64,000 nucleotides of DNA from a candidate division FCPU426 bacterium (GTDB lineage Bacteria; Oederibacteriota; Muellerivitia; Muellerivitales; Muellerivitaceae), in NCBI GenBank assembly GCA_030041545.1, contig JASHNQ010000050.1, positions 22,374-86,373 of the forward strand, given 5' to 3'. Position 1 is the stretch's first letter. The number at the start of each line of letters is the position of its first letter. The notes below the pieces were generated by a model, which was not told the DNA's origin, did not search any database, and worked only from the letters and a program-made list of their open reading frames with translations. A program made the position numbers and the translations under genes. This document shows positions 16,447 to 59,697 of this stretch, one piece after another.

Positions 16447-16575
16447 AACGCTTACCACAAAGTTCACGAAGGACACAAAGTGAAGCATGGAAACGTCGGG
16501 AAAACCTAAGGTTTTTAACTTCGTGTCCTTTGTGCCGATTCACCTTGTGGTGAGCGTTTTTGGTTAGGGACTCTA
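16447..16575. repeat. compound palindromic element P1 (CACAAAGT-family arms within ctaacaaaaa-type outer inverted repeats)
   Basis: cttaccacaaagttcacgaaggacacaaagt ... aacttcgtgtcctttgtgccgattcaccttgtggtgagcg tttttggttagggactc; near-identical reverse-complement copy at 18876..19000. Confidence 0.7.
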
Positions 16576-17544
16576 AGAAAGTTCTTCGCGGGTCACGACC
16601 CGGGGATCGTCATAAAAAGCTCGGATTTCCTCCGGCGTATTCTCCCTTTCCAGGTAGTCGCACCAGATCATGAACCAGGCCCAGCGGGGCTGGCGCTTCA
16701 ACAAGCCGGGGGCGGGCACCTTCCCGATCTCCCCCAAGGCCACGGGCTTTCCCTCCGCCACGGCCAGCAGTTCCTCGTAATGCCGGTCCTGGAAGTCCCC
16801 CTTGTAAACATCCGTGGCCAGGATGTCCACGTAAGCGTGGCCCGGGTAGTAGTCGCGGTAGGGGCCCGCGTTTCCCTCGTCGTTCACCTTGTTGGCGTTC
16901 CATACCCACAGCAGGTTGTTCAAGCCGTATTTCTTCGTGAAAACCTCGATCATCAGGCGGTAGAGCGCCTGGGCGCCGCGGGGGCCGGGGCGGCCGCCCC
17001 ACCAAAACCAGTCACCGTTCCCCTCATGGTAGGGCCTCCAAAGGACGGGGACGCGGGCGTCCCGCAGCTTGGTCAGATGACCCGCCACCACTTTCAAATG
17101 CCTCAGCCAGCGGTTGTGGAGCGGCGTCCCGGGTATGGTCAATTCCCTCCACTCGAGGTCGGTCAGCTTGTTCTGGACGCTTTCCTTCCAGCCATTAGGT
17201 TCCTCGTCCGTGGGCCTCACCGCGTGCCACATGAGGGTGATGATATTCCCCTCCCGGTGGCGCTTAATGGCTTCCTCCATATTGGCCTCGCGGTTCCAAA
17301 CAGCGTCCTTGTCCTCCAACCCGGCCGTGAAGCCGAAATCCTGCCCCCAAATGGCCGGGTAACGGCCGGTGATCCCGCTGGCCTTCTCCGAGTAGCCGGA
17401 ATGGAAGCCGGGGTAGTTGTGCTGGCCCGACAGGGTCTTTTGGCCGGAAATGGAATAAAGATATTCGAGGAGCTTTCGGGCCTCGGGCGAGGCTTGGGGG
17501 TTGACGGGTTCCAAAGACATAAGAGGCCTCAATTGATCCCTCAT
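16573..17544 (-). CDS. glycoside hydrolase family 26 (beta-mannanase-like)
   Basis: WHAVRP and RPYHEGNGDWFWWG GH26 signature motifs; no obvious signal peptide; start could alternatively be the MSLEP ATG at 17520. Confidence 0.8.
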   Translation of the reverse strand: MRDQLRPLMSLEPVNPQASPEARKLLEYLYSISGQKTLSGQHNYPGFHSGYSEKASGITGRYPAIWGQDFGFTAGLEDKDAVWNREANMEEAIKRHREGNIITLMWHAVRPTDEEPNGWKESVQNKLTDLEWRELTIPGTPLHNRWLRHLKVVAGHLTKLRDARVPVLWRPYHEGNGDWFWWGGRPGPRGAQALYRLMIEVFTKKYGLNNLLWVWNANKVNDEGNAGPYRDYYPGHAYVDILATDVYKGDFQDRHYEELLAVAEGKPVALGEIGKVPAPGLLKRQPRWAWFMIWCDYLERENTPEEIRAFYDDPRVVTREELS

Positions 17545-17708
17545 TTTTCACCAACGGAGGCATTGCGGGAAAGGGACGCCCTGCTTTTGTGCCCGGGGAG
17601 ATTTTAGTCGAACGGTGGCGGGTATAAAAGGAAAGAGGTGGAGGTAGGGGGAATCAAAAGGGTTCCCGGGGGGTGGGAACCCCCGGGAGCCGCAACCAGA
17701 CGGAAGGC

Positions 17709-17909
17709 TTAGTTGGCGGGAGTCGGCGTGGGTGTCTCCATGTGATGGTGGTGGTGTCCCCTGCCATGTTTAGGGGTTGGCGTGGTGGAAGGCGTAGCCG
17801 CCACGGAGTCGTCCCCCGAGGCCGTCACGGCCCCGTCCTGCGCCCGGACCAACAGGGCCCCGGAGGCCAAGAAAGCGGCGGTTAAAACCCAAGCGAATTT
17901 CTTTTTCAT
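17709..17909 (-). CDS. small secreted His-rich peptide
   Basis: 66 aa; signal peptide MKKKFAWVLTAAFLASGALLVRA then ...KHGRGHHHHHMETPTPTPAN. Confidence 0.45.
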   Translation of the reverse strand: MKKKFAWVLTAAFLASGALLVRAQDGAVTASGDDSVAATPSTTPTPKHGRGHHHHHMETPTPTPAN

Positions 17910-18198
17910 GAGAACTCCTTTCCCGCAAAAATTGAAACAAAAAGCGTTTCAGTGGGATTAGACGTTGCCGGTTTATTTATCGGGTCACCGGTGGGTGGAC
18001 GATTTCGGATTTCCAGGCGCTTTTTCCGGCTGGGGGGGCTCCCACGGGCAAGGCCTGGAGGGAGCGTCATGACGTTGATTCCATGAATTCATTTTCCCGG
18101 GGGAAAGTCCGGCCGGACCCCTGGACGGAATCAGCATTGGCCGCCGAATAGGCGAGGGTGAGATCCCGCTTTTAAGGATCCCCAAGCGGTGAAACGCC

Positions 18199-18645: not shown

Positions 18646-18875
18646 CTTCGTCCTCCAGGAAAAATACGGGATTTGACCTAAAGCCGGTGGGTTCAACCGG
18701 CGCAAGGCGCTCGAGGCTTCAACCTGGATTTTGAATTGAATTGGGGGAAAGAGAAGCGGGGACAGCCGCTGGAAATGACGTCGACTGGGCATGATTCTAC
18801 CTTAAAAATTGGGAAACGCAAGGGCCAAAAGCCGGCGATGAAAGCGTTTTGATGGGCATTTAGAGTCCCTAACCA

Positions 18876-19000
18876 AAAATGCTCACCACAAGGTGAATCG
18901 GCGCAAAGGACACGAAGTTAAAAACCTTAGGTTTTCCCGACGTTTCCATGCTTCACTTTGTGTCCTTCGTGAACTTTGTGGTAAGAGTTTAGAGCGAAGG
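18876..19000. repeat. compound palindromic element P2 (reverse-complement copy of P1)
   Basis: gagtccctaaccaaaaatgctcaccacaaggtgaatcggcgcaaaggacacgaagtt...cactttgtgtccttcgtgaactttgtggtaagag, which is the reverse complement of 16447..16575 with a few substitutions. Confidence 0.7.
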
Positions 19001-19055: not shown

Positions 19056-20348
19056 CTAATTCTTCCGCCATTCCAGGAAACTGCGGTAATCCATGGTCAC
19101 CTGGTCGGCATAGGCGTGCGCGATGACCTGGAGCATGGAAACGAATTTCCTCTCCCGCCCTTTCAGCCGCTTCCAGGCCTTGCGGGCGAAATGCTCGCGG
19201 GCCCGGCAATGGGCCCGGGCCAGCGCCCCGCCCATTTGGCTCGCCACTCCCGCGTCCACCTTGCGGTAGGGCAGGGCGGCCTTGTAGGGCGACCTCTCCC
19301 GCACGCAATACTCCCCCTCTTTGAGCTTAAGCCATCCCAGCCAGGGGTCCGCGTCGCGGCCCAGGGCTTGGTAGGCCAGCACCACCCTCAAGGCGTGGTT
19401 TCCCCCGCAAGCCTCCTTGGTCTTTTGCTTGGCCCTCTTGGGAAGGTAGGGCCAGGGGCTGGGTTTGGGCTGGAACTTGACGTCCAGGATGCGGTAATTC
19501 CACTTGCCGCCCGACTCCACCTCCACCAGCGCGTAGTAACGGTTGAACCCATAGGAGCCCACGCCCTGGTGCAGCCGAAGCGCGATGTCCTTCACCTCGA
19601 AAAAGCCGATCTGTTTGACGGGCCAGGGCTTGAGCTGCTCCGCGTAGTCCCCCAGGGCCTCGCGCAGGGCCGGCTCCATGCCCGGCGCCACCGTGTCCAG
19701 GTCGGTTTTCCCGCGGTTGAAGGCGAAATCGTCCCCCGCCTCCACGCACCAGCGCTCCAGCATGCGGGCGCGGCCCTGCTTGGATTGGACGTGCTCCAGG
19801 AAATGCTTGAGGGCCCCGTGGGCGCTTTTGCGGTCGAGGGCCTCGCGGGCCCCCTTGGGGTCCTTGGCCAGGCGTCCCACCTCCCGGAAGTATCCCTTGG
19901 CGCAGGCCTTGACCAGGACCCTGCGGTGGTGGGGCTTCATCCGGTTTTCCCGCGCCAACAGGTTCAGGCTCACCACCAGCCGCCAGAGGTCGAACTGGTA
20001 ATCGGCGATGACCGATTCGTCGAAATCGGTCACGTCGTACACCAGCCGGCCTTTGGCGTCGGTGAAGGCGCCGAAATTGCCGCAGTGCATGTCCCCGCAC
20101 AGCCAGGTGCGCGTGCCGTTCTTGCCGCCGAAGGCCTTGGCCAGGTGGGCGCCGCCGAAGTCGGCCCAAAACAGGTGGGCCGTGCCGCGCAGGAACACGA
20201 AGGGCGAAAGGGCCATTTCCTTGAACTTTTCCTCGCGCCGGATGGGCAACAGTTCCTTGTTGAAGAGGGCGACCTGTTCCCTCACCCACTCGGGGCGGGG
20301 TTGGGGAAAAAGCAGGTCGGCTTGGGGGTTCACGAAGGATTTCGACAT
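19056..20348 (-). CDS. DUF2252 domain-containing protein
   Basis: 431 aa resembling DUF2252 proteins (recognised from memory; not confirmed). Start set at the MSKSF ATG. Confidence 0.6.
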   Translation of the reverse strand: MSKSFVNPQADLLFPQPRPEWVREQVALFNKELLPIRREEKFKEMALSPFVFLRGTAHLFWADFGGAHLAKAFGGKNGTRTWLCGDMHCGNFGAFTDAKGRLVYDVTDFDESVIADYQFDLWRLVVSLNLLARENRMKPHHRRVLVKACAKGYFREVGRLAKDPKGAREALDRKSAHGALKHFLEHVQSKQGRARMLERWCVEAGDDFAFNRGKTDLDTVAPGMEPALREALGDYAEQLKPWPVKQIGFFEVKDIALRLHQGVGSYGFNRYYALVEVESGGKWNYRILDVKFQPKPSPWPYLPKRAKQKTKEACGGNHALRVVLAYQALGRDADPWLGWLKLKEGEYCVRERSPYKAALPYRKVDAGVASQMGGALARAHCRAREHFARKAWKRLKGRERKFVSMLQVIAHAYADQVTMDYRSFLEWRKN

Positions 20349-20915: not shown

Positions 20916-20960
20916 AGTCAACCTCCTTCTTGCGCCTTACCCCGTCCTTTTTTGGAAAAC

Positions 20961-22823
20961 CTATGGGCCGCCCGCCTTTTTATGGAGCATTTGGCGCGTG
21001 GCTTCCAGGATGCGGGCCACCGGCTTTCGCCGGTAGTCCCACCGGGGATCGGGGCCGGGCGGGGTGACGTTCATGCAGGCATTGGCTTCGTAAAGCAGCA
21101 GGTTGCCTTCCCCGTCCAGGCCGAAATCAACGCCAGCGTAATCGAGGGCCAATTGGTCCCGGATAGCCTCCAGGGCCCGGAAGGCCCGTTCCCCGATGGC
21201 GGACCTCGTGTCGCCAAGGAATGCCTGGTCCTCAGCCCGGTTTTCAGGGTGGTCGTCCATGTCGGCGGTGAAATAATGCACCTTCCAATCCCCGGAGAGG
21301 GCCAAGTGGGCCGGGTAAAGTTCCCCGCCGATCATCATGACCCGGTATTTCCGCGTCTTCCCGTCCTTGCCCCGGCCGTCCAGGTAACGCAGGACGGTCA
21401 GCACTGATCCGGGAAGGGACGCCACCGCCAGGGCCAGGTCCTTTTCGTTGGAAACCAGGCGGAAATAACGGCCCAAGTGGTATCCCGGCGAGCGCAGGAG
21501 GAACGGATAGGAAAACCCCCTCCTGGCGACTTCGGTGTAACCGTCCGGTTTCGCCAGCAGCTCCTTGGGCAGGTTGACGATGTCGGGGGTGACGACGCCC
21601 TTAATCCCTCGCAGGCGCACCGCGTTTTCGGCGCGGCCCGTGGCCAGCACCCGGGAAGGCGGGTTGACGACGGGCGCCCTCGACCGGGCCAGGATGGTTT
21701 GGACGGCGCGCAGGGCGGGGCGGCAAAGGTCGGCCTCCCCGACGCAGTTGACCGCCAGGCGGTGCGGGGGAAGGGGCTGGGTGGGGTCGTAAAAATCGGT
21801 CACAATCACGGAGGGAAGGAAAGTCCCGTCGTCCATCATTTTGAGGAAGGGACCGTTGTTGTCGAACGTGGAGGTTAAGAGAAGCACCGGCAAAGGCCGG
21901 GGTTCGCCGCGCCGGGGCTTGGCCCCGGCCGCCGTGTCCCCGGGAGGCCCGCCTTCCGGAGGCGGCAGGAGGGACAGGGCCTGGCGGGCCTCTGGACAAT
22001 CGGCCTGAAGTTCCAGGACCTTCGCGTACTGGGCGCGAGCCGCCTCGGTCTTTCCTTTTTCCCGCAGCAGGCCGGCCAGGGTCAAATGTCCCTGGACGTT
22101 TCCGGGGTGGTGCCTCAGCGCCTCGGGGAGGGCCAACAGGAAAAACCCATCGGGATCGTCCGTCTTTCCCGGCAGGGAGGGCGAAAGTTCCAGGACCCGC
22201 CCATAGGCCAGCCGCGCTTCATCGTCCCGGCCCAGTTCCTTAAGCAGTCGCGCCCGGTAAAAATGGGCTTCCACGTCGTCGGGGGACGCCCTCAGCCGTG
22301 CGTCCGCCTCCTCGAGGGCCGCCAGCCGCGACACCCGCAGCATTTCCTTCGTCGCCTCCGATACGGCTTCAAACCGTTGCCGGGCGGCCGCCGGGTCCTC
22401 GGGCTTTAATTGCACGTTGGAAAGCCGGCGCAACCGCCCCAAAAGCACCTGCCGCCTGACCGCGAAGGCCAGCCTGCGCCCAAGGGAATCCGCGTCCCTG
22501 TCCATCTTGGTCAGGCAGTCCACGGCGCCATCCTGCAGGGCGCGGAAGGACAACTTGACATCCTTGTCCGTGAGGACGATGGAAGGCGCCCCTGGGGCCA
22601 AGGTTTGGACTTCCAGGAAAAAGGGGAGGCTGTCCTGCCCGGGCAGGTCCACGGCGATGAAGTCGGGGGCCCTTTCCCCGATGGCCCGCCGGACGTCCTC
22701 CAGGCCTTGAAGGTGGAGGAATTCCACATCCTCGTCCCTGATCCGGGAAAGGACCTCTTTCCAAAAATCGGCGTCGCGTCCGCTTTCCTGGAGGAAATAG
22801 CACCGAATGGGGCTTGCGTTCAT
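20961..22823 (-). CDS. receiver (REC) + TPR + ATP-grasp (RimK-like) fusion protein, paralogue 1
   Basis: N-terminal CheY-like domain with acceptor context PDFIAVDLPG; central TPR repeats; C-terminal ATP-grasp motifs YRVMMIGGELYPA...VDFGLDGEGNLLLYEANACM. Confidence 0.7.
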   Translation of the reverse strand: MNASPIRCYFLQESGRDADFWKEVLSRIRDEDVEFLHLQGLEDVRRAIGERAPDFIAVDLPGQDSLPFFLEVQTLAPGAPSIVLTDKDVKLSFRALQDGAVDCLTKMDRDADSLGRRLAFAVRRQVLLGRLRRLSNVQLKPEDPAAARQRFEAVSEATKEMLRVSRLAALEEADARLRASPDDVEAHFYRARLLKELGRDDEARLAYGRVLELSPSLPGKTDDPDGFFLLALPEALRHHPGNVQGHLTLAGLLREKGKTEAARAQYAKVLELQADCPEARQALSLLPPPEGGPPGDTAAGAKPRRGEPRPLPVLLLTSTFDNNGPFLKMMDDGTFLPSVIVTDFYDPTQPLPPHRLAVNCVGEADLCRPALRAVQTILARSRAPVVNPPSRVLATGRAENAVRLRGIKGVVTPDIVNLPKELLAKPDGYTEVARRGFSYPFLLRSPGYHLGRYFRLVSNEKDLALAVASLPGSVLTVLRYLDGRGKDGKTRKYRVMMIGGELYPAHLALSGDWKVHYFTADMDDHPENRAEDQAFLGDTRSAIGERAFRALEAIRDQLALDYAGVDFGLDGEGNLLLYEANACMNVTPPGPDPRWDYRRKPVARILEATRQMLHKKAGGP

Positions 22824-23049
22824 TTGGACCGCTCCGGTCCGCCGGCCAAAGGCGGTTTTCAGGTAACAATCATGTTTCGACGGGCGAGAATGGAAAAACC
22901 GCCCGGAAAAACGTCATTTTACCTTGGAGCGGGAAGAAAGGGATCGCGGGTTGGGCCGGTCTCAATAACTCTTTTAGGGAGATGTGGGACATCGGATTTG
23001 ATCGGCGGTTGAGTCTTTTTTGTTTACTTATTTTTAGGAGATAATCACC

Positions 23050-25137
23050 ATGTTTACCTGCCAAACGCTATATCGGGAAAAGCGTTTGGTGCAACTCGAC
23101 AACGCGAACATGGGTAAGCGGCTTCATTTTGGGGGCCAACCACCCGCGTCTGGGGATGGCGCTTGGGCCGGGTCCAAGCCAGGTAAGGGTTCCACTTTTG
23201 GGGGAACTGGCCAGCCGGACGGGTTTGGCGAGGCGGAAATCATCGAAATCCTCAACAGGCTCAAAACGAAACGGGAACCATCCTTCCCCGCCCTTTCTTC
23301 CATCCCGTCATGGGAGCCGGTAGGGGCTGCCTGCTTTCTCTTGGTTTCGGCGGTTTTCCTCTTTTATCTTCCCGTCTTAAGGAACCCCTTCGTCAACTGG
23401 GACGACATGGATTGCATCGCGGGCAACCCCCACCTCCGCCGCTTGGATATTCAAAACCTGTCATGGATGTTGACGACCTACTACTCGGGGAATTGGCTGC
23501 CGCTGACTTGGCTTTCTTTCGCGATGGATTACCTCTGGGGCGGGCTGGATCCCCGGGCTTACCACGCCACGAACGTCGTCCTCCACGGCCTTAATACCCT
23601 CCTTGTTTTCCTTGTTTGCCGGAAAATCCTCGAACAGGCGGTGGACGGAAAAAAGGAGGATGCCGGCCCCAAAGTCCCCGCTTATCCGGCGGCTTTCCTG
23701 GCGGCCCTTTTATTCGGGTTGCACCCCATCCACGTGGAGTCCGTGGCTTGGGCCGCCGAGCGAAAGGATGTGCTTTACGCTTTTTTCTACCTGGCGGCCA
23801 TGGGGCTTTATCTCCAGGGCCCCTCCCCACTGGATTGGAAAAAACCCAAGCCCTGGGCCTTGTTGGGGCTTTACTCGCTGGCCCTGATGTCCAAACCCAT
23901 GGCCGTCACCCTTCCCTTGGTCTTTTTAATCCTGGATTATTGGCCGCTGGCGCGCCCCTCAACGGACGGCTTAAAACCCCTCGCCGAAAAAGCGCCCTTT
24001 TTCGCCTTGGGCCTAGCGGACGGGCTGGCGGCGATCCAATCCCACGGAAGCGCGATCGTATCCACCGGCGGCTCGGCCCAGGTCCTATGGTCGTTCAACG
24101 CCTTTCGCGCCCCGGTCTTTTATCTGTGGAAAATGGCCGTGCCCCGCCACCTGGTTCCGTTGTACCCCTTCCCCCCCGGGACCAACCCCGCGTTCCAATG
24201 GGAATCCTACGCGGCCGCACTGCTGGTGGCCGGGACCGCCGCCGTCCTCTACCGTTTCCGAAAGCAAATCCCTTATGCCGCGGCCGCGGGGCTGTACTAC
24301 CTGGCGACCCTGGCGCCTGTTTTGGGTTTCCTGCAAATCGGAAGCCAGGCGGCGGCGGACCGTTATACTTACCTTCCCAGTTTGGGCGTCTTCCTTCCTT
24401 TTTCCGCCGGCGTGGCGTTCCTGCTGCGCAGGCGCCGGTGGGCGCTGGGATTTCTCACGGCCCTTTTGGCCTTGGCGCTGGGGCTGGCAACCATGGCCCA
24501 AATCAGCCTTTGGAGAAATTCGGAAATCCTTTGGGAAAGCGTGGTTCGGGCCTATCCCGGCTGGTCATCGGTGGCCTATACCTACTTGGGCGTCACCTAC
24601 ACGCGGGAGAAAAAATGGCCGCAAGCCCAGGCGGCGCTGCGGCAGGCCCTTTCCATTCCCCCTCCCCTGGCCGTCACCCACCAGGCTTATGGCCTCCTTC
24701 TTCTTTATTTAGGGAGGTTGGACGACGCCATCGGTGAATTCAAGGAAGCCCTTGCGCTCAACCCCGAATTCGTCCTGGCTTACCAAAACCTATGGGTGGT
24801 CTATGAGCACCTGGGAAGGCATGGGGAAGCCCTGGCCCAGATCAAGGAGGCGGTCCGGCTGGAGCCCCAAAACGCGGATTTTACCCGCGATATGGGGGAA
24901 AGCAACCTGGCATTGGGGCGCTATGGGGAGGCGGAGACGGCCTTTCAACGGGCCCTGGAGCTGGACGCCCATTCCGCGCAGAGCCTGGTGGATTTGGCAA
25001 CGCTTCGCCTCCAACAAGGCCGCCCCGGGGAAGCCCGGGGCTTGCTCAAGGCCGCGTCGGCCTTGAACCCCCAGGACCCCCGGACCCTCCGGGAAATGGA
25101 GGAGGATTCCCAAAAAGCCGGCCCTGCCACCCGCTGA
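23050..25137 (+). CDS. TMTC/PMT-like (GT39-type) integral membrane glycosyltransferase with C-terminal TPR repeats
   Basis: Multiple TM helices; NPFVNWDDMDCIAGNPHL motif (DUF1736/TMTC-like); C-terminal TPR array; AGGAGA 8 nt upstream of ATG. Confidence 0.65.
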   Translation: MFTCQTLYREKRLVQLDNANMGKRLHFGGQPPASGDGAWAGSKPGKGSTFGGTGQPDGFGEAEIIEILNRLKTKREPSFPALSSIPSWEPVGAACFLLVSAVFLFYLPVLRNPFVNWDDMDCIAGNPHLRRLDIQNLSWMLTTYYSGNWLPLTWLSFAMDYLWGGLDPRAYHATNVVLHGLNTLLVFLVCRKILEQAVDGKKEDAGPKVPAYPAAFLAALLFGLHPIHVESVAWAAERKDVLYAFFYLAAMGLYLQGPSPLDWKKPKPWALLGLYSLALMSKPMAVTLPLVFLILDYWPLARPSTDGLKPLAEKAPFFALGLADGLAAIQSHGSAIVSTGGSAQVLWSFNAFRAPVFYLWKMAVPRHLVPLYPFPPGTNPAFQWESYAAALLVAGTAAVLYRFRKQIPYAAAAGLYYLATLAPVLGFLQIGSQAAADRYTYLPSLGVFLPFSAGVAFLLRRRRWALGFLTALLALALGLATMAQISLWRNSEILWESVVRAYPGWSSVAYTYLGVTYTREKKWPQAQAALRQALSIPPPLAVTHQAYGLLLLYLGRLDDAIGEFKEALALNPEFVLAYQNLWVVYEHLGRHGEALAQIKEAVRLEPQNADFTRDMGESNLALGRYGEAETAFQRALELDAHSAQSLVDLATLRLQQGRPGEARGLLKAASALNPQDPRTLREMEEDSQKAGPATR

Positions 25138-25178
25138 TGGGTTGGGAAAGTACAAGCCTTGAGGGGTGACTCCGCGAC

Positions 25179-27041
25179 CTATGGGCCGGCCGCCCTTTGA
25201 TGGAGCATTTGGCGCGTGGCTTCCAGGATTCGGGCCACCGGCTTTCGCCGGTAGTCCCACCGGGGGTCGGGCTCGGGAGGGGCGACCGTCATGCAGGCAT
25301 TGGCTTCGTAAAGCAGCAGGTTGCCTTCCCCGTCCAGGCCGAAATCAACGCCCGCGTAATCGAGGGCCAATTGGTCCCGGATAGCCTCCAGGGCCTGGAA
25401 GGCCCGCTCCCCGATGGCGGACCTCATGTCGCCAAGGAAAGCCTCGTCCTCGGCCCGGTTTTCAGGGTGGTCGTCCATGTCGGCGGTGAAATAATGCACC
25501 TTCCAATCCCCGGAGAGGGCCAAGTGGGCCGGGTAAAGCTCCCCGCCGATCATCATGACCCGGTATTTCCGCGTCTTCCCGTCCTTGCCCCGGCCGTCCA
25601 GGTAACGCAGGACGTTCAGCTCCTTTCCGGGAAAGGACGCCACCGCCAGGGCCAGGTCCCTTTCATTGGAAACCATGCGGAAATAACGGCCCAGGTGGTA
25701 GCCCGGTGAGCGCAGCAGGAAGGGATAGGAAAACCCCCTCTGGACGACTTCGGCGTAACCGTCCGGTTTCGCCAACAGGTCCTTGGGCAGGCTGACGATG
25801 TCGGCAGTGACGACGCCCTTAATCCCACGCAGGCGCACCGCGTTTTCGGCGCGGCTGGTGGCCAGCACCAAGGAGGGCGGGTTGACGACGGGCGCCTTGG
25901 ACCGGGCCAGGATGGCTTGGGCGGCGCGCAGGGAGGGGCCGCAAAGGTCCGCGTCCCCGACGCAGTTGACCGCCAGGCGGTGCGGGGGGAGAAGCTTGTC
26001 GGGGTCATAAAATTCGGTCACGATCGCCAAGGGGAGGAAGGTCCCGTCGCCCAGCATTTGGTACAAGGGACAATTGCCGTCGAGCGTGGTTAACAACAGC
26101 ACCGGCAAAGGCCGGGGTTCGCCGCGCCGGGGCTTGGCCCCGGCCGCCGTGTCCCCGGGAGGCCCGCCTTCCGGCGGCGGCAGGAGGGCCAGGGCCTGGC
26201 GGGCCCCTGGACAATCGGCCTGAAGTTCCAGGACCTTCGCGTACTGGGCGCGAGCCGCCTCGGTCTTTCCTTTTTCCCGCAGCAGGCCGGCCAGGGTCAA
26301 ATGTCCCTGGACGTTTCCGGGGTGGTGCCTCAGCGCCTCGGGGAGGGCCGACAGGAAAAACCCGCCGGGATCGCCTGTCGTTCCCAACCAGGAAGGCGCA
26401 AGTTCCAGGACCCGCCCATAGGCCAGCCGCGCCTCATCGTCCCGGCCCAGTTCCTTAAGCAGTCGCGCCCGGTAAAAATGGGCTTTCACGTCGTCGGGGG
26501 ACGCCGCCAGCCGCGATTCCCTCTCTTCGAGGGCCGCCAGCCGCGTCACCCGCATGGTTTCCTTCGCCGCCTCCAATACGGCCTCCCTCCATTGCCGGGC
26601 GGCCGCCGGGTCCGCCGGCCTCGCTTCTGGGGTGTAAAGCCGGTACAAACGCCTCAAAAGGACCTGCCGCCGGGCCCAAAGGGCCAGCCTACGCCCAAGC
26701 GAATCCACCTCCCCTTCCCCCATGACCAGGCAGTCCTCGGCGCCCTCCTGTCGGACGTGGAAGGACAACTTAGGATCGCCATTTTCCGTGACGGCGATGA
26801 AAGGCGACTCGGGGGCCAAGGTTTGGACTTCCAGGAAAAAGGGGAGGCTTTCCTGCCCGGACAGGTGCACGGCGATGACGTCGGGGGTCCTTTCCCCGAT
26901 GGCCCGCCGGGCATCCTCCAGGCCTTGGAGGTGGGGGAATTCCATGTCCTCGTCCCTGATCCGGGAAAGGACTTCTTTCCAAAATTCGGTGTTGCGTCCG
27001 CTTTCCTGGAGGAAATAGCACCGAATGGGGTTTGCGCGCAT
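25179..27041 (-). CDS. receiver (REC) + TPR + ATP-grasp fusion protein, paralogue 2 (acceptor Asp replaced by His)
   Basis: About 95% nucleotide identity to 20961..22823 over most of its length; N-terminal region diverged (PDVIAVHLSG instead of PDFIAVDLPG); start set at MRANPIRCYFL by homology to paralogue 1. Confidence 0.7.
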   Translation of the reverse strand: MRANPIRCYFLQESGRNTEFWKEVLSRIRDEDMEFPHLQGLEDARRAIGERTPDVIAVHLSGQESLPFFLEVQTLAPESPFIAVTENGDPKLSFHVRQEGAEDCLVMGEGEVDSLGRRLALWARRQVLLRRLYRLYTPEARPADPAAARQWREAVLEAAKETMRVTRLAALEERESRLAASPDDVKAHFYRARLLKELGRDDEARLAYGRVLELAPSWLGTTGDPGGFFLSALPEALRHHPGNVQGHLTLAGLLREKGKTEAARAQYAKVLELQADCPGARQALALLPPPEGGPPGDTAAGAKPRRGEPRPLPVLLLTTLDGNCPLYQMLGDGTFLPLAIVTEFYDPDKLLPPHRLAVNCVGDADLCGPSLRAAQAILARSKAPVVNPPSLVLATSRAENAVRLRGIKGVVTADIVSLPKDLLAKPDGYAEVVQRGFSYPFLLRSPGYHLGRYFRMVSNERDLALAVASFPGKELNVLRYLDGRGKDGKTRKYRVMMIGGELYPAHLALSGDWKVHYFTADMDDHPENRAEDEAFLGDMRSAIGERAFQALEAIRDQLALDYAGVDFGLDGEGNLLLYEANACMTVAPPEPDPRWDYRRKPVARILEATRQMLHQRAAGP

Positions 27042-27140
27042 TTTGAGCGTTCCGGTCCGCCGTTGAGGGTGGTTTTCAGGTAACATCCATGTTTCGGGAA
27101 ACCGCCCTGGAAAACCTTATTTTACTTTCCGGCAAGAGGA

Positions 27141-27587
27141 CTAGGACGGAAAATCTCCGATCCACCTGAGGGCCACCGGAGCGCCCTTGAGCCGCTTGAG
27201 GAGTTTTTGGTCCGCAGTCACCAGGGGCGCCTTCAGTTCCTCGGCCAGGGCCAGGTAGCAGGCGTCATAGGCCGTCACTTCCCATTCAAGGGCCAGGTCC
27301 AGGGCCCGGGGCGCCAGCAGGGCGGTGGAAACGGCCTTCAACCCCAACTGCCGCAAGGCGGAAATGTCCTTGAGGGCGTCCGAGGGGGAATAACCCGAAT
27401 GGCGGACATATTTCCAAAGGATATTAGCGCACTCCGCGTAGAACAGGTCGGGAACATGGGGCTGGAAATGGGGTTCCCCCCCAATGGCCTGGAAAAGCGT
27501 TTTAGCCTGGGGCGAATGTTCCTCCGCCACAAAAAGCTTGGCCCCCACGCTGGCGTCCACCACTAGATGGGGCGGGAGGCCGCTCAC
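27141..27587 (-). CDS. vapC: type II toxin VapC (PIN domain ribonuclease)
   Basis: PIN-domain acidic residues (LVVDASV...AYDACYLALAEEL...VTAD); overlaps the upstream antitoxin gene by 4 nt. Confidence 0.75.
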   Translation of the reverse strand: MSGLPPHLVVDASVGAKLFVAEEHSPQAKTLFQAIGGEPHFQPHVPDLFYAECANILWKYVRHSGYSPSDALKDISALRQLGLKAVSTALLAPRALDLALEWEVTAYDACYLALAEELKAPLVTADQKLLKRLKGAPVALRWIGDFPS

Positions 27588-28020: not shown

Positions 28021-28392
28021 TTATTGGCTCTCGCCGCCGGGGGTGCCGTGATAAAGGCCGGTGGTCAGGAACCAGCCGCTGACCGTGGCGCCCGCGGAAT
28101 TCACCCCGGTCTGCTGGTTCAAATCGTAGTGGTACACCGGAACCCCGCCACTGTAGGGCGTCACGGTGGTCTCACCCCCACAGGCATAACGGATTTCGGG
28201 AACAAATAAAATTACCTGTAATCCCCAACCATGATCCATGGATTGGGGCGTATCAAACCCCAGTACCTCCGACCCGGTATCCAAACGGCCGGCGGAATAC
28301 GCCAAATCCGGGAATTGGCCCTCCAGGACAGGTTTTACAGCCTCCTGAAAAAATCCCTCGCAAAGCCGCATCCCTTTTTCAAACCTCGGCAT
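28021..28392 (-). CDS. hypothetical protein with degenerate minimal nucleotidyltransferase-like motif
   Basis: GSEVLGFDTPQSMDHG resembles the GS..G....SD.D MNT motif with substitutions; AGGGAG RBS present; possibly a truncated remnant. Confidence 0.4.
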   Translation of the reverse strand: MPRFEKGMRLCEGFFQEAVKPVLEGQFPDLAYSAGRLDTGSEVLGFDTPQSMDHGWGLQVILFVPEIRYACGGETTVTPYSGGVPVYHYDLNQQTGVNSAGATVSGWFLTTGLYHGTPGGESQ

Positions 28393-28439: not shown

Positions 28440-29310
28440 GGGCACTGGCGCATATGCGTTAGAATCCGGTGGCTTTTCCAACCCTTTAGGATTGGGCCTC
28501 AGTCCGGCTTTCTTGGCTATGTTTCCAGCGCCCCCTCATCAGTACGTGACCTTTTCGATCATACGGCTTTCCGACAACCTTTCCTCCGTCGGCTTTGCGG
28601 GTTCTGCTTTCTCTTGGCCGCTCGGCATAGTTCTTGTTGAAGATTACGCGCTTTTGTCCTTCAGAGTTGTTAGCCGTTTCCGGCATTCTCCAGCGCCACC
28701 CTTCTTGAATGCACGTGGTTGAAGCAGGGGACCTTCCCTCGGGAGAGGTTTTGTTGTCCTCCCCCTCTAAGCGGTACTATTTCCCCCTCCGACTTCCTCC
28801 CGTCACGCCTCCCTTTCGGTCGCCCTTATAGGAGCCGCTCTTTTAACGGGTAGGATCTCCCAGGTTGATGCATGAGCCTTTTCAGCGTTCCGCTCCCCAT
28901 ACGCCGGAGGATTTGCCTCACCCAATCCTGTTTCAGGGTGAGATTGTTGCCTTCGCCGGTGGACACGCGGCTCGGCCTCCCCTGTAGCCTTTCGGCGGAC
29001 TCTTCACGACGCGGCAGGATTCACTTCATGTTGCGGACTGCGGAGTTGTTCCCTTCCTTTCGAAGGTTTATGACCTCGTTTCGGACAAAGCCTCTCGACT
29101 TTGCCACGGAGGCTGACTTCGGGGCCCTCAGGCGGTTACCCCGTCAGGACTTGGTCCATATCGAACCTCACCTGCTGGCTACTGCACCCTTGTTCCTGGC
29201 ACACTGTCCACGACGGGTCCCAATCGTGGACACTCAAAATCAGCTGTACCTTTTTACAACTTCCTCCGTCTCTTTTGAGGCTCATTCCCATCAATAGCTA
29301 TTTTCCAAAT
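28440..29310 (-). other. ORF-free, lower-GC region; candidate structured RNA or degenerate group II intron fragment (unresolved)
   Basis: ~0.9 kb with only short low-complexity ORFs; plus strand pyrimidine-rich, so the minus transcript would be purine-rich; reverse complement of ~28548..28582 reads AAGCCGUAUGAUCGAAAAGGUCACGUACUGAUG, partly matching the group II domain V consensus GAGCCGUAUGCGAUGAAAGUCGCACGUACGGUUC. Confidence 0.3.
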
Positions 29311-33643: not shown

Positions 33644-33660
33644 GAAATCGTTCCCAAAAA

Positions 33661-46907: not shown

Positions 46908-46983
46908 TTAAGTTAGGGGTTAGGAATGAGGAGTTAGGAGTTTACGGATTTCACTCCTCACTTCTAACTCCCAACTCATAACT
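46908..46983. repeat. palindromic element R1 (GAGTTAGGA-type arms) overlapping the hisC 3' end
   Basis: gttaggggttaggaatgaggagttaggagt ttacggatttc actcctcacttctaactcccaactcataac. Confidence 0.6.
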
Positions 46984-48099: not shown

Positions 48100-48127
48100 A
48101 AACCATCCACAATTTAAAATTCAAAAT
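48100..48127. repeat. single-arm AT-rich GAATTTTGAATT-family unit array (Q2)
   Basis: ccacaatttaaaattcaaaattcacgattcaaaatt in the hisC-hisD gap; partner arm not evident. Confidence 0.4.
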
Positions 48128-49489
48128 TCACGATTCAAAATTATCTTTCTTACCCATCCTAAACAACACGCTTTGGGCGTGGGCGCCCAAACCCTCTTCG
48201 TTGGCAAAATCCACCGTGGCCTTGCCCAGCGCCTTCACGCCGGGTTTCTTGATCTCCAGCAGGTTGGTGCGTTTGAGGAAGTCGAACACCGAAAGCCCCG
48301 ATGAATAGCGGGCCGTGCCGCCCGTGGGCAGGACATGGTTGGTGCCCGCCGTGTAGTCGCCGAAGGCCTCGGCGCTGTGGGGGCCGATGAAGAGCGCGCC
48401 CGCGTGCTTGATGTCCGGCAGCCAGGCACGGGCGTCTTTGGCCAATATTTCGAGATGTTCGGGCGCGAAACGGTTGGCGAACTCGATGGCTTGCCTCCGG
48501 TTCTTCACCACGAGGATGGCCCCACGGCTCTTGATGGAATCGGCCGCGATTTGCTCCCGTTCCAGGAGTTCCAACTGCAATTCCACTTCCTTGGCCACTT
48601 CCTTGGCGTAAGGGGCGGAAGTGGTCGCCAAAAGGGGCATGGCCATTTCGTCGTGTTCCGCTTGGGCCAGAAGGTCCGCCGCCGCCCAGGAGGCCGGCAC
48701 TGTGCCGTCGGCCAGGATCAGCACCTCGCTGGGCCCCGGAAAACCGTCGATTCCAACTTGTCCGAAAACCTTGCGCTTGGCCAAGGCCACGAAGAGGTTG
48801 CCTGGTCCCGTAATCTTGTCCACGGCCGGGACTGACTTGGTACCATAAGCCAGGGCCGCGACGGCCTGGGCTCCACCGATCTTGAGAATGGTATCGGCTC
48901 CCGCGAAATAGGCAGCGGCCAGCACAATGGGGTTCACCTTGCCATCTTTCTTGACCGGCGTGACCACCACCACTTCCTTAACCCCCGCCACCTTGGCCGG
49001 AATGACATTCATGATGACCGAAGAAGGATAGGCGGCCAGGCCGCCCGGCACATAAAGTCCAACCCGGTCCAGGGGCGTCCAGCGCTGGCCTAGGGCCACC
49101 TGCGGGCCGTTGTGGAACCACCGGGATGGTTTTTCCTTGGCATGGAAAAAGCGGACGTTGCGGATGGCCGTGCGAATGGCGAATTCCACGGGAACTTCAA
49201 GATGATTGAGTGCCTGCTGGATTTCAGCTTGGGTGACGCGGATGTTTTTGGCGTTGGCGGCGAAGCCGTCCAGTTTACGGGTATAGCTGAAGAGGGCCGT
49301 GTCGCCTTTCTCCTTCACGTCTTCCACGATGCGCTCCACGGCCTGTTCAGGTGTCAGCTCCCGCCCGAAGACCTTCTTGGTCAAGGACGCCCGGCTGCCC
49401 GCGCCCTTTAAGGCGAAGATGGGTTCACGCTTAATAAGCTTTTCGACCAAAAAGCGGTCTTTATTCTTCGAATAGTTCAAGATTCGCAT
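48128..49489 (-). CDS. hisD: histidinol dehydrogenase
   Basis: Canonical HisD; ATG preceded by GAAGAGG. Confidence 0.9.
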   Translation of the reverse strand: MRILNYSKNKDRFLVEKLIKREPIFALKGAGSRASLTKKVFGRELTPEQAVERIVEDVKEKGDTALFSYTRKLDGFAANAKNIRVTQAEIQQALNHLEVPVEFAIRTAIRNVRFFHAKEKPSRWFHNGPQVALGQRWTPLDRVGLYVPGGLAAYPSSVIMNVIPAKVAGVKEVVVVTPVKKDGKVNPIVLAAAYFAGADTILKIGGAQAVAALAYGTKSVPAVDKITGPGNLFVALAKRKVFGQVGIDGFPGPSEVLILADGTVPASWAAADLLAQAEHDEMAMPLLATTSAPYAKEVAKEVELQLELLEREQIAADSIKSRGAILVVKNRRQAIEFANRFAPEHLEILAKDARAWLPDIKHAGALFIGPHSAEAFGDYTAGTNHVLPTGGTARYSSGLSVFDFLKRTNLLEIKKPGVKALGKATVDFANEEGLGAHAQSVLFRMGKKDNFES

Positions 49490-49500
49490 CACAACCTCTT

Positions 49501-49606
49501 CGCCAATTTTGAATTTTTAGTTTTAAATTTTAAATATTGGTGGTTTTCGATCAAAGATCGAAAACTTCCACAATTTAAAATTCAAAATTCATAATTCAAA
49601 ATTTCA
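49501..49606. repeat. AT-rich compound palindrome Q3 with perfect inner hairpin
   Basis: aattttgaatttttagttttaaattttaaatatt ... ggttttcgatcaaagatcgaaaac ... aatttaaaattcaaaattcataattcaaaattt, in the hisD-murA gap. Confidence 0.65.
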
Positions 49607-51010: not shown

Positions 51011-51040
51011 TTTGTGGTTCAATGCCTTTGAAAATAAAAA

Positions 51041-51507
51041 AAGAAGCAGGTCATAAGCCGAATTCTGTTAAGTGTGATCATTTCTCTCGCGGGGTCCGTT
51101 GCCGGCCCCGTCGATGCGATCTTACCCGAAGGCCTCCCCTTCCCGTGAAGGAAAGGGATGGGACGGACCGCCCCAAAGCCTCCCTATTTGATCTTGCTCC
51201 GGATGGGGTTTGCCATGCCGCCCCACTTGCGTGGGGGCGCGGTGGGCTCTTACCCCACCTTTTCACCCTTACCCTTCGACTCGGCCTTACGGCCTCGCTC
51301 AGGGCGGGCCCCTTTAGGGAACCTGCTCTGGTCTCGCCAACGGGCGGTTTGTTTTCTGTGGCACTTTCCTTCAACCCAGTCCTCATCACCAAAGGTTAGA
51401 GGAAGGCTGGGCCGACCGGGCGTTACCCGGCATCCTGTCCTGCGGAGTTCGGACTTTCCTCACCCCCGGGCCCAAAAGGCCGGGAGCGCGATCACGGACC
51501 TGCTTCC
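51041..51507 (-). ncRNA. rnpB: RNase P RNA (bacterial type A)
   Basis: Minus-strand transcript: P1 GGAAGCAGGUCC pairs with GGACCUGCUUC; P4 5' strand GAGGAAAGUCCGAACUCC; GGGUAACGCC; P4 3' strand ACAGAAUUCGGCUUAUGACC; U-tract after the 3' end. Only spurious ORFs overlap. Confidence 0.85.
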
Positions 51508-51591
51508 AAGGGCATAATAGGGGTAAATCCGGCTGAAATCCAGCTTGGCAAACCCGCGGTAGTGGTTCAGTTTGAATGAACCAATCCAGCT

Positions 51592-51700
51592 TCACCCTCA
51601 CCCCGCCCTCTCCCCTCAAGGGAGAGGTGGAAATACACACAAAACCCTCGCCCCTTGAGGGAGCCCTTCGAGGGCCTCAGGGCAGGAGGGTAGGCTTGCG
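51592..51700. repeat. degenerate GGGGAGAGGG-family repeat, copy E
   Basis: caccctcaccccgccctctcccctcaagggagaggtgg ... ccctcgccccttgagggagccc. Confidence 0.5.
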
Positions 51701-56499: not shown

Positions 56500-56511
56500 T
56501 AAATGAAGTCT

Positions 56512-57501: not shown

Positions 57502-58688
57502 TTTTTCCCTCTCAAGATTGCTAGAACATAAGTATCTTCAAAAGAAAAATCAGCTACTGGATTTCCGTTCTTTATCAATGACTCTTGTGCTCTCTCAACC
57601 CCACGGCCAAACTTGTTAACATAACCCAGATTATTCATGGCTTCCGCAATTATCGGATTCCTGTAGGCGGTTTGTTTCGGAAAATTTTTGGGAGTGGCTT
57701 CCCCGTACAAGCCACCTGGACTTTGAATTTCTATTCTATCTTCGAACCAATAAAATCGAACAGGGGCGGTAGCCTCATAATCTCTGTGCATCATCCCGTT
57801 CATAAGTATTTCTCGTATCGCTATTTCGGGATAATCTTTTATATCTTTATCTCGTAGAGCATCTTCCCTAACAACAGACTTAGTAATTTGAATTGAAACA
57901 AAAGAATTTAAATCTTTTAGAACCGTCAACAAATCCCCAGAAAATCTTTTGTTATCCAATACGTCATCAGAAAGTTTTTTCCCATTAAAACGGACAAACT
58001 CAACATAGGCGCCAGGAAACCAGTTTAGTGGGTTTTTACCAAATAGAAGCATTCCAGCATTTGTGGGGCAAGATTTTGAGAGGTTAAAAAAACGCAAAGA
58101 AGCCAACTGTAAATCTACGGAACGATGATTTTCAGCGAGCACATCAGAAGCAACCGCAGTTTCTCGATATCCAACCACAAACAGCTCTTGAGATAAATCA
58201 GTGATTGATGAGCCAACACATGGACGAGCATCAAGTGTTTTTGCAGAATCGGTATTTTTCTCAGTTAATCTTCGCTCTTCTTGTAAGGTTGCAAAACCTC
58301 TCCTTGGACCAACGCGAATACACGTCCTGCCTTTGTACCGAACCGGAGTTAATTCCGATGGAAGCACCTCAACAATTGCAATTTCTCCAGTTCTCATTGG
58401 ATGTTCAAGTTTATATACACTCATGATTGGAAATGGTTGGATATTTGCATCGGATCTTAAACTTCCAAGTTGTTCCAATAATAGTTCAGTAACTTTTAAT
58501 CCAGATGCGGTTCCATCTGGATTCACACCAATAAGCAAATATCCGGGTAATCCGTGGTTCGGCAAGTCATTTGAAAATGAACATATAGCTTCACAAAATT
58601 TATCTATATCCTCAGTTGAAATGGTTTTTTCAACTCGATCTTGTTCATCGCTCTTAAGAAGTTTTTTCAATTCTTTGGGAGTTAGCAA
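57498..58688 (-). CDS. Schlafen-like AlbA_2 domain + HATPase_c_4 domain protein (annotated elsewhere as ATP-binding protein / putative regulator)
   Basis: N-terminal ...GYLLIGVNPDGTASGLKV (AlbA_2-like); C-terminal IREILMNGMMHRDYEATAPVRFYWFEDRIEIQSPGGL (HATPase_c_4-like); overlaps the ParA-like gene by 4 nt; low GC. Confidence 0.7.
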   Translation of the reverse strand: MLTPKELKKLLKSDEQDRVEKTISTEDIDKFCEAICSFSNDLPNHGLPGYLLIGVNPDGTASGLKVTELLLEQLGSLRSDANIQPFPIMSVYKLEHPMRTGEIAIVEVLPSELTPVRYKGRTCIRVGPRRGFATLQEERRLTEKNTDSAKTLDARPCVGSSITDLSQELFVVGYRETAVASDVLAENHRSVDLQLASLRFFNLSKSCPTNAGMLLFGKNPLNWFPGAYVEFVRFNGKKLSDDVLDNKRFSGDLLTVLKDLNSFVSIQITKSVVREDALRDKDIKDYPEIAIREILMNGMMHRDYEATAPVRFYWFEDRIEIQSPGGLYGEATPKNFPKQTAYRNPIIAEAMNNLGYVNKFGRGVERAQESLIKNGNPVADFSFEDTYVLAILRGKK

Positions 58689-58763
58689 TTGGACTCCAGT
58701 GAATCAATAAAATGTTAAACATTCATTATCAAATTGTAGTAATCCGATTACAAATTATTAAGG

Positions 58764-59576
58764 TTATCTATTTTTTAAAAGAATTTTTTGGATAGCAAGA
58801 CTATCCCTGAGGACCTGACGGAAGGTCTCGAAGGTGATTTGGGTGGCGGCGTCGGACTTGGCTTTGGGCGGGTCCGGGTGCACCTCCATGAAAAGGCCGT
58901 CCACTCCCACGGCCACCGCCGCCCGCATGAGGTCCGGCGCGTGCTCGCGGGTTCCGCCGCTGGAAGTCCCCTTGGCCGCGGGCTGCTGCACGCTGTGGGT
59001 GCCGTCGAATATAACCGGGCAGCCGGTCTTTTTCATTTCCGGGATGCCCCGGAAATCCACCACCAGGTTGTTGTAGCCGAAGGAAGTTCCCCGTTCGGTA
59101 AGCCAGATGTTCTTCTGGCCCACTTCCATCATCTTGCCGATCACATGGATCATTTCCAAGGGAGCCATGAATTGCGCCTTTTTCACGTTGACCACTTCCC
59201 CATGCCGGGCCGCCTCCCTTAAAAGGCTGGTTTGGCGGGAAAGAAAAGCGGGGATTTGGAGTACGTCAGCCACCTTGGCGGCCGCCTTCACCTCGCCGAT
59301 CTCGTGGATATCCGTTAAAACGGGGATGTTGAATTTCTTTTTCACTAAAGCCAGGTCGGCCAGGCCCTTCTTGAGTCCGGGCCCCCGGAAACCCTTCATC
59401 GAAGTGCGGTTGGCCTTGTCGTAGGAGGATTTGAAGACCAGGGGCACGCCGAACTCGTCCGCGATACCCTTGATGGTCCTGGCGGTCTTTAAAAGAAAAT
59501 CCGTGCCCTCGATCACGCAGGGCCCCGCGATCACGAAGAACTTGCCGTTTTTGCCTAACTGTTTTACGTCGATCAT
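58764..59576 (-). CDS. kdsA: 3-deoxy-8-phosphooctulonate synthase
   Basis: Canonical KdsA; ATG (MIDVKQ) preceded by AAGGGG. Confidence 0.9.
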   Translation of the reverse strand: MIDVKQLGKNGKFFVIAGPCVIEGTDFLLKTARTIKGIADEFGVPLVFKSSYDKANRTSMKGFRGPGLKKGLADLALVKKKFNIPVLTDIHEIGEVKAAAKVADVLQIPAFLSRQTSLLREAARHGEVVNVKKAQFMAPLEMIHVIGKMMEVGQKNIWLTERGTSFGYNNLVVDFRGIPEMKKTGCPVIFDGTHSVQQPAAKGTSSGGTREHAPDLMRAAVAVGVDGLFMEVHPDPPKAKSDAATQITFETFRQVLRDSLAIQKILLKNR

Positions 59577-59587
59577 AAAACCCCTTA

Positions 59588-59697
59588 TCACCGCGAAGAC
59601 ACGAAAACCGCGAAGGAAGATTTAAAAAGGAAAAATGATGTTTTTCAAAACAAAATTTTTTTGCTTTTCTTCGCGAACTTCGCGCCTTCGCGGTTCA
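59588..59697. repeat. compound palindromic element P9 (CGCGAAG tandem-unit arms)
   Basis: caccgcgaagacacgaaaaccgcgaaggaag ... cttttcttcgcgaacttcgcgccttcgcggttca, in the kdsA-pyrG gap. Confidence 0.6.

Follow-up and report, generated by a model that had tools for sequence, protein, structure and literature searches.

Tandem-unit palindromes in operon spacers of a candidate division FCPU426 bacterium and their likeness to the arms of GxxExxY genes

What are the long palindromes that recur in the operon spacers of a candidate division FCPU426 bacterium, and how did they arrive there? The window, a stretch of 64,000 nucleotides (assembly GCA_030041545.1, contig JASHNQ010000050.1, positions 22,374 to 86,373), contains nine of them, designated P1–P9, each located at the position given by the original prediction or a few bases away from it. 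In every copy, about three 9-nt units in tandem, each with a 2-nt spacer before CACRAAG, are followed by a loop of 20–60 nt and by the inverted units; several loops hold a small inner hairpin, as had been described. With a probability of about 0.5, P1–P5 and P7 are gene-less, non-autonomous members, resembling miniature inverted-repeat transposable elements (MITEs), of a cross-phylum cassette family named here for the GxxExxY gene of its gene-bearing form, and they also serve as operon hairpins; P6, P8, and P9 probably belong to it more distantly. Its defining features are two inverted arms of ~31 nt, each with three 9-nt units (a CAC[G/A]AAG core and two purine-rich spacer nucleotides), and the ends ACCAC and GTGGT.

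Architecture and common descent of the palindromes

The units are strongly enriched in the window. CTCTTACCACAAAGT with up to three mismatches matches 12 times against 0.98 expected, ACCACRAAGNNCACRAAG with up to two mismatches 19 times against 0.12, and CACRAAGNNCACRAAG with up to one mismatch 23 times against 0.09. All nine palindromes fold on both strands into a single long hairpin of −31 to −68 kcal/mol, with z-scores of −4.7 to −11.5 relative to dinucleotide shuffles, a structure beyond chance. The strand-biased pairing reported earlier was recovered in P3 and P4: the arms of P3 form G-U pairs on the plus strand and A-C oppositions on the minus strand, and those of P4, likewise, combine G-U pairs on one strand with A-C oppositions on the opposite one. 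This bias has no consistent relation to transcription, since P1–P5 and P7 split three to three between the two orientations with respect to the minus-strand genes, and greater stability of the transcribed strand was seen in 6 of the 9 copies, which is not significant.

The core palindrome of P1 (16447–16560) has the left arm ACCACAAAG-TT-CACGAAG-GA-CACAAAG, a partly degenerate right arm, and a loop with the inner hairpin AAAACCTAAGGTTTT; its RNA fold amounts to −49.1 and −44.0 kcal/mol on the two strands (z −7.3 and −5.7). Around this core lies an outer MITE-like layer (16425–16576), with terminal inverted repeats (TIRs) GAACCCTAACAAAAA (16428–16442) and TTTTTGGTTAGGGACTC (16557–16573) and, as read from the sequence, TAA direct repeats beside them (16425–16427 and 16574–16576). 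P2 (18876–18990) is P1 in inverted orientation, with 98% identity across 131 nt (18860–18990 versus 16446–16576), and carries one outer TIR only. The outer inverted-repeat layer noticed earlier in some copies is thus present in P1 and P2, and the outer TIR of P1 resembles that of a MITE at 46117–46270. P3 (31570–31667), situated in the lpxK/kdtA spacer, combines a left arm of three CACGAAG units with a right arm of three CTTTGTG units. P4 (36160–36258) belongs to the P3 subfamily in the opposite orientation and stops 3 nt short of the start codon (ATG, 36156) of a family 4 glycosyltransferase (GT4) gene; in both P3 and P4, the units are homogeneous within an arm, 3/3 G-type in one and 3/3 A-type in the other. 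P5 (46045–46292) occupies the hisB/hisH spacer, its right arm split by the nested MITE, and P7 (52688–52792) has an RNase H gene on one side and a CIA30-domain gene on the other, with a loop homologous to those of P1, P4, and P5. The remaining three are P6 (50884–51023; CACCAAG/CACAAAG units with an 8–9-nt period; fold −61.0 and −68.5 kcal/mol), which adjoins the RNase P RNA gene, P8 (45326–45422; CGCGAAG/CACGAAG units) in the hisH/hisA spacer, and P9 (59586–59697; mostly CGCGAAG units) in the pyrG/kdsA spacer.

Once oriented, P1, P2, P3, P4, P5 (with its insert removed), P7, and the orthologue of P5 in a syntenic relative (L122) align from end to end, including the loops. The six window copies have the termini CTCTTACCAC on the left and GTGGTGAGAG on the right, together with a fixed asymmetry, in which CACAAAG is the innermost unit on the left and CTTCGTG its counterpart on the right. 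Because this polarity is common to all the aligned copies, P1–P5 and P7 are shown, at the level of their sequences, to descend from one founder and not from independent local origins. P6, P8, and P9 have the architecture in common with them, use other units (CACCAAG and CGCGAAG), and appear loosely related. Hence, the single family with conserved termini that had been proposed for all nine copies holds for six.

The same arms across phyla and around GxxExxY genes

Copies also occur beyond the window, in syntenic relatives and in many phyla. One genome per species was scanned with ACCACRAAGNNCACRAAG (~1100 chance matches expected over the whole 596 Gb), and at least 120 loci matched. Exact matches on both the plus and the minus strand exist at 29 of the 120 loci listed, and 28 of the 29 are convergent pairs within 450 nt, mostly 45–240 nt apart, in at least eight phyla. 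A looser arm detector finds pairs in at least 53 sources. Among the hosts are Chloroflexota, Desulfobacterota, Acidobacteriota, Planctomycetota, and Verrucomicrobiota, and the lineages recorded include Anaerolineales, Thermoflexus, Oscillochloris, Syntrophobacteraceae, Desulfobacterales, Schekmanbacteria, Flavobacteriales, and Alpha-, Beta-, and Gammaproteobacteria. Their arms have the consensus T[TC][CA]ACCACGAAG-RR-CACGAAG-RR-CACGAAG, facing its inverse.

In a Desulfobacteraceae locus (L115), the arm pair is 413 nt apart and surrounds a gene. The 376-nt space between these arms is filled exactly by a GxxExxY gene, the product of which matches TIGR04256 (E = 6.5e-45) and PF13366 (PDDEXK_3). 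Metagenomes were searched with this protein, the flanks of the best 80 loci were read, and 74 genes were evaluable. Under a criterion of at least two forward units directly upstream and at least two reverse units directly downstream, 45 of the 74 genes have inward-facing units on both sides, cases that are not phylogenetically independent because one subfamily was sampled, although their flanking sequences differ; at least one arm accompanies 71 genes, and no arm accompanies 3. The gene is located within one palindrome in the 45 cases, and between a right arm and a left arm in one case. A single nucleotide separates the third CACGAAG unit from the ATG (CACGAAG[G/A]ATGGAATTTGA), the reverse units begin 3–6 nt past the stop codon, and the protein in full-length cassettes has 123 aa. 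Lacimicrobium alkaliphilum, a cultured gammaproteobacterium with a complete genome, has the same arrangement, located upstream of hutC, and two long contigs (L209 and L210) show it as well.

A de novo screen of the fetched loci revealed no other cargo between CACRAAG-type arms, GxxExxY being the sole gene, with one locus set aside. In that locus, from a Vicinamibacterales metagenome-assembled genome (MAG; L063, 2021–2589), inverted arms of tandem 8-nt CACCGAG units surround an unidentified 157-aa open reading frame (ORF), which may be another cargo for tandem-unit arms.

The arms around the gene, also written as CTCTTACCACAAAG-type, were compiled into an nhmmer profile from the GxxExxY-flanking arms alone, with no window sequence included. 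Against the window, the profile matches P4 (E = 1.6e-8, with a further match at 8e-4), P3 (3.8e-8, with a further match at 2.4e-5), P1 and P2 (3.3e-5), P7 (1.7e-3), and P5 (0.03). All matches with E < 1 in the 64 kb fall within P elements, and P6, P8, and P9 stay below significance (P8, E = 0.97). By these profile matches, P1–P5 and P7 are shown to belong, as far as arm sequence tells, to the same arm family as the arms flanking GxxExxY genes. The profile provides a simple and specific detector of the family in any genome.

Unit conservation was compared in register in 59 elements, comprising P3, P4, the orthologue of P5, gene-less copies of other phyla, and gene-bearing copies. The 7-nt unit cores pair almost perfectly. 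In one clade of GxxExxY proteins, all six units have changed from CACGAAG to CATGAAG with fully compensating partners (CTTCATG), and one divergent element uses CACAGAG/CTCTGTG throughout. In both arms, the 2-nt spacers favour purines on the CACGAAG strand, and in ~35–40% of the elements they are unpaired; their covariation between arms is unconvincing (65 of 133 matches versus 55.9 ± 5.2 permuted, p = 0.05). The matched changes that had been claimed for the two arms therefore apply to the cores and not to the spacers. Because the cores pair and the spacers often do not, the stem consists of three perfect 7-bp helices joined by loosely paired purine–pyrimidine positions, and recognition of the repeated 7-mer sequence fits this unit pattern better than pairing alone. 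The A/G and C/T unit variants presumably represent the two CpG-transition products of CACGAAG.

The residues D61, D67, E77, and K79 are invariant in 34 GxxExxY sequences, as would be expected for an active D...ExK nuclease. This very large subfamily is 80–95% identical across Gammaproteobacteria, Desantisbacteria, Bipolaricaulota, and Desulfobacteraceae, and the whole GxxExxY/PDDEXK_3 family comprises at least 8000 clusters at 90% identity. A 2012 survey of PD-(D/E)XK enzymes described PDDEXK_3 as being of unknown function and frequently transferred horizontally (PMC3424549), and no later assignment was found in the searchable literature. The protein has no sequence match among solved structures, and no relatives of it were found in viral contigs. 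No description of either the flanking arms or their link to GxxExxY turned up in the searchable literature, and one in a database entry or a subscription journal is possible. The fixed DNA signature around the gene offers a direct experimental handle on PDDEXK_3 function.

Gene-bearing cassettes also occur in internally deleted form directly beside full copies, in L132 (1273–1440; compare L134) and in L208 (4430–4480). L132 corresponds to L134 with an additional copy, in which 35 nt from the 5′ end of the coding sequence and 50 nt from its 3′ end stand between the left arm and a stub of the right one. In L161, L163, L174, L176, L181, L201, L204, and L206, the cassettes form tandem arrays: directly behind a GxxExxY gene and its left arm come a further left arm and another GxxExxY frame, possibly defective. 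The direction of the gene agrees with that of the flanking genes in 14 of 15 co-directional contexts (binomial p ~5e-4, on crude ORF calls), which suggests that the gene relies on read-through transcription.

How such a family might operate can be outlined. For a GxxExxY-type nuclease acting in trans from another place in the genome, the arms would provide the modules of recognition or homology, and copies would spread at the DNA level into transcribed spacers by a homing-like or transposon-like route. In a spacer, a copy would be tolerated, as the transcribed arms would form a 27–33-bp hairpin insulating the neighbouring cistrons; by analogy with Correia elements and the intervening sequences of 23S rRNA, this hairpin could be cut by host RNases such as RNase III, or act as a 3′ stabiliser. 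In the gene-bearing form, AAGGA in the left arm, ~8 nt before the ATG, may serve as the ribosome-binding site. Only tentatively do we extend this outline to the proposal that triple-9-mer arms and the GxxExxY nuclease together constitute an unrecognised cross-phylum miniature mobile cassette, a RAYT-REPIN-like partnership on another enzyme fold, in which the nuclease would recognise CACGAAG units and copy the cassette or its arms into transcribed spacers and host RNases would excise or insulate the copies. Were it true, the window genome would have expanded the gene-less form to ~1 copy per 7 kb, and the large GxxExxY/PDDEXK_3 family would gain its first function. If the gene-less palindromes are the non-autonomous offspring of GxxExxY, a second nuclease–palindrome system would stand beside RAYT-REPIN in many phyla and would extend to cultured, testable organisms such as Lacimicrobium alkaliphilum.

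Turnover among relatives and rival explanations

Orthologous intergenic regions were compared in five syntenic relatives (L122 and L124–L127; HisH 89–72% identical; ~110 kb), of which L127 is the closest. The hisB–hisH spacer measures 270 nt in the window (P5 with its MITE) and 110 nt in L122, where an orthologous CACGAAG palindrome stands uninterrupted at 9891–10000; it measures 112 nt in L124 with an AATT-type palindrome (9889–10000), 63 nt in L125 with the remnant of a right arm, 27 nt in L126, and 24 nt in L127. The hisH–hisA spacer has ~100 nt in the window (P8), 29 nt with a mini-hairpin (ACCGCGC..GCGCGGT) in L127, 0 nt in L122, 172 nt in L124, 31 nt in L125, and 61 nt in L126. The pyrG–kdsA spacer has 106 nt in the window (P9), 96 nt in L127 with a degenerate orthologue of CACGGAG/CACAGAG units, 31 nt in L122, and 11 nt in L124; the two genes overlap in L125, and pyrG lies outside the fetched locus in L126. 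L127 is without the palindromes at three his-operon spacers. The relatives also have palindromes that follow this design with other units (CACAGAG, CACCAAG, CACGGAG, GATGAACGCA, and TTTGAAT). These alignments show that individual operon spacers have gained a palindrome, lost one, or had one replaced between close relatives, and the differing occupancy therefore points to fast turnover at fixed operon spacers.

Several observations weigh against membership of P1–P5 and P7 in a GxxExxY cassette family. No transposase or GxxExxY gene, and no RAYT (Y1 transposase) gene, is present among 40 window ORFs scanned against Pfam (mostly within 15.8–61.3 kb), and an HMM (hidden Markov model) search found no GxxExxY gene in the window or in ~110 kb of the syntenic relatives. 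The gene-bearing long contigs L209 and L210 hold no gene-less copies within 20 kb, the GxxExxY genes sampled represent one subfamily (68–95% identity), and an AlphaFold model from the shallow 34-sequence alignment reached a pLDDT (predicted local distance difference test) of 47, too poor to use. The loops of gene-less copies, those of the window included, contain no remnant of GxxExxY gene ends except in L065, as judged by an HMM on six-frame translations and by position matrices of the gene ends. Because the loops lack such traces, the gene-less palindromes are not recent internal deletions; they would be either old derivatives or a separate arm-only lineage, or possibly the target into which the GxxExxY gene inserts. 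No target-site duplication flanks the core palindromes. Furthermore, the arms of P6 enclose the ancestral rnpB terminator, the hairpin of which is present without arms in L124 and L125 and with degenerate arms in L127, and a mini-hairpin occupies the P8 site in L127, both of which a single insertion explains poorly. Palindromes built alike from unrelated units (AATTCAA, GGAGTTA, and GATGAAC) exist in the lineage as well, so a general process may account for part of the architecture.

These last three observations are what growth in place would lead one to expect, that is, slippage of 7–9-nt units combined with strand-switch (quasi-palindrome) copying of arms, with neither transposition nor element-encoded machinery, and the homogeneity of units within an arm in P3, P4, and P9 agrees with it as well. 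As a complete account it is unlikely: it leaves unexplained the same 31-nt arms in many phyla and their tight link to one protein family, the loop and polarity common to P1–P5 and P7 at unrelated loci, and the near-identity of P1 and P2, and slippage would homogenise the 2-nt spacers too, yet these vary within arms. The P6 terminator, the mini-hairpin of L127, and the unrelated units of the same design nevertheless keep slippage and strand-switch growth in play, at least as a contributor. It is about equally improbable that the palindromes are immobile RNA elements that purely serve the host, as RNase III sites, mRNA 3′ stabilisers, or intercistronic terminators. The placement of all copies between co-directional genes of housekeeping operons would suit such a role, as would the very stable hairpin on the transcribed strand of every copy, the retention of the hisB–hisH copy in L122, and the spacers of gene-less copies elsewhere, which are convergent in 13 cases, co-directional in 20, and divergent in 5 (crude flank survey). 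A host function is harder to reconcile with the absence of copies from three his-operon spacers of the closest relative, with an orientation to transcription that is random, and with the insignificant excess of stability on the transcribed strand; the elements are not terminator-like, the rnpB terminator inside P6 excepted, they match no Rfam family, and their sequence is kept more than their pairing, with cores fixed and spacers often mismatched.

The two transposase-based readings fare worse. Ordinary MITEs of a DDE transposon, with an insertion sequence (IS) transposase binding repeated sub-terminal units, would have terminal inverted repeats with repeated sub-motifs, a length of ~100 nt, multiple copies, and variable presence, and the arms of ~31–33 nt are such terminal inverted repeats; moreover, a true TIR-MITE with TTA/TAA duplication co-occurs and nests with the palindromes. 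This origin is nonetheless quite improbable: target-site duplications are restricted to the outer TIRs of P1 and the MITE in P5, no IS with these ends exists in the window or in 210 fetched loci, and GxxExxY is the only gene between CACRAAG-type arms, the 157-aa ORF of L063 lying between CACCGAG arms. Mobilisation of REP/REPIN elements by a RAYT (Y1/HUH) transposase would account for interspersed operon palindromes formed by inverted doublets with no target duplication, and GTAG-headed REPIN-like palindromes of another type are present in L122. For P1–P9 themselves we regard it as very improbable, for the GTAG head is found in 0 of 9 copies, the termini being (CTC)TTACCAC / GTGGTGA(GAG), the arms are three direct 9-nt repeats and not self-complementary REPs, and the 40 Pfam-scanned ORFs include no Y1 transposase. 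The earlier statement that the elements are not REP, BIME, or ERIC and belong to no named family is upheld by the missing GTAG head, the lack of a self-palindromic REP unit, and the lack of an Rfam match.

With regard to known systems, REPIN-RAYT is the closest functional analogue of the GxxExxY cassette. Both involve short intergenic palindromes of two inverted halves, multicopy, in operons, and with no target duplication, and both tie a non-autonomous population to one small repeat-flanked nuclease-type gene, domesticated or selfish. However, the cassette has no GTAG head, its halves are direct triple repeats, its gene has a PD-(D/E)XK and not a Y1/HUH fold, and its arm sequence is found in many phyla, in contrast to the lineage-specific REP sequences. 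Correia/NEMIS elements of Neisseria, ERIC, RUP, and Nezha are likewise ~100–150 nt long with inverted ends, lie next to or between genes, and form long hairpins when co-transcribed; Correia hairpins are cut by RNase III. Unlike the palindromes described here, with their tandem-unit arms and range across phyla, these have target duplications (TA in Correia), non-repetitive TIRs, and a distribution within one genus each. Cyanobacterial short tandemly repeated repetitive (STRR) sequences and small dispersed repeats consist of tandem 7-nt units, often with hairpins and nested palindromes. They resemble P1–P9 in their intergenic position, and differ in sequence, in having no associated gene reported, and in their restriction to cyanobacteria. 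Free-standing homing endonuclease genes are comparable as small conserved nuclease genes in distant hosts, intergenic and in single or few copies; here there is no intron or intein context, and the palindromic arms and the gene-less population have no counterpart among them. The intervening sequences (IVS) of 23S rRNA, from which excision by RNase III is documented, also carry a tiny gene (23S_rRNA_IVP) within a long stem formed by its own flanks, and are sporadic and horizontally spread, but they sit in rRNA helices and encode a four-helix bundle. The IVP protein is still uncharacterised (bioRxiv 10.1101/2024.02.27.582315).

Other identities were considered and set aside. Integron attC sites are excluded by the lack of RYYYAAC/GTTRRRY cores and by the position of the gene inside a palindrome and not between successive palindromes, and 23S rRNA intervening sequences by the location of all copies in mRNA spacers. 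Intrinsic terminators, with a short G+C-rich stem, a small loop, and a U-tract, do not correspond to the palindromes, which the terminator scan did not flag. Resemblances to DnaA boxes, parS, and CsrA or Hfq sites fail on sequence.

Genomic setting and neighbouring elements

All nine palindromes lie between minus-strand genes, in housekeeping operons according to a Pfam scan of the flanking ORFs, in agreement with the same-strand intergenic gaps described before. The gene orders are hisA-P8-hisH-P5-hisB, lpxK-P3-kdtA, kdsA-P9-pyrG, and murA-like gene-P6-rnpB; P4 follows the GT4 glycosyltransferase gene and P7 the RNase H gene. The palindromes also indicate spacers within operons at which mRNA processing is probably influenced by long double-stranded RNA stems. 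At the gathering threshold, Rfam matches in the window are limited to RNase P RNA (51039–51506, minus) and a group II intron domain, and no Rfam family matches the palindromes. A permissive Rfam search of 31.5–36.3 kb found no bacterial family and no match of any kind at P3, and at P4 and a nearby AATT-type palindrome it returned only sub-threshold hairpins of microRNA precursors. The terminator scan flags the rnpB terminator within the loop of P6 (50943–50968, minus).

The MITE nested in the right arm of P5 (46117–46270) belongs to an element family different from the palindromes. It has 154 nt, runs from GAGACTCTAACAAAACC to GGTTTTGTTAGAGTCTC, and is bordered by TTA duplications (46114–46116 and 46271–46273). 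Its interior consists of CCCTCTCCC..GGGAGAGGG hairpins, and the family has a 3-bp TTA/TAA target duplication. A second copy with 93% identity is present at 61383–61554, and related pieces occur at 9132–9257, 43282–43358, and 51558–51647. Nesting proceeds both ways, with the MITE inside P5 and the core of P1 inside MITE-like TIRs; an outer TIR around an inner CACRAAG palindrome was also seen in an Anaerolineales MAG (L083, ~7450–7740). A contig of another assembly with identical HisH (L121, MAG GCA_030051685.1) ends inside the MITE of P5, and for annotation the palindrome and MITE elements account for such contig breaks.

Other palindromes with tandem-unit arms fill further spacers, and every his-operon spacer in the window carries one of some kind. 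A GGAGTTA-type palindrome with tandem heptamer arms occupies the hisB–hisC spacer (46909–46985) and has a counterpart in L126 (18669–18799). AATT-type palindromes of tandem heptamers (AATTCAA / AATTTTG) are located at 9892–9939, 33656–33786, 48100–48142, and 49505–49603, the last two in spacers of the his operon. In L122, GTAG-headed REPIN-like palindromes (TGTAGGGGC...GCCCCTACA) stand at 12237–12325 and 19613–19704, so that this lineage harbours a classical REP-type family alongside its tandem-unit palindromes.

Elsewhere in the window, a group II intron D1–D4 RNA domain is matched at 29026–29162 (minus, 64 bits); the ORFs beside it (28021–28392 and 28872–29297) have no Pfam match, and the region may be an intron fragment or a gene-less intron. 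A duplication (20959–22844 and 25177–27062; offset 4.2 kb, 90–95% identity) comprises two tetratricopeptide repeat (TPR) protein genes, between which a third, divergently oriented TPR gene is situated (23050–25137). Adjoining this duplication is a PIN-domain gene (27141–27587, minus), possibly the toxin of a toxin–antitoxin pair.

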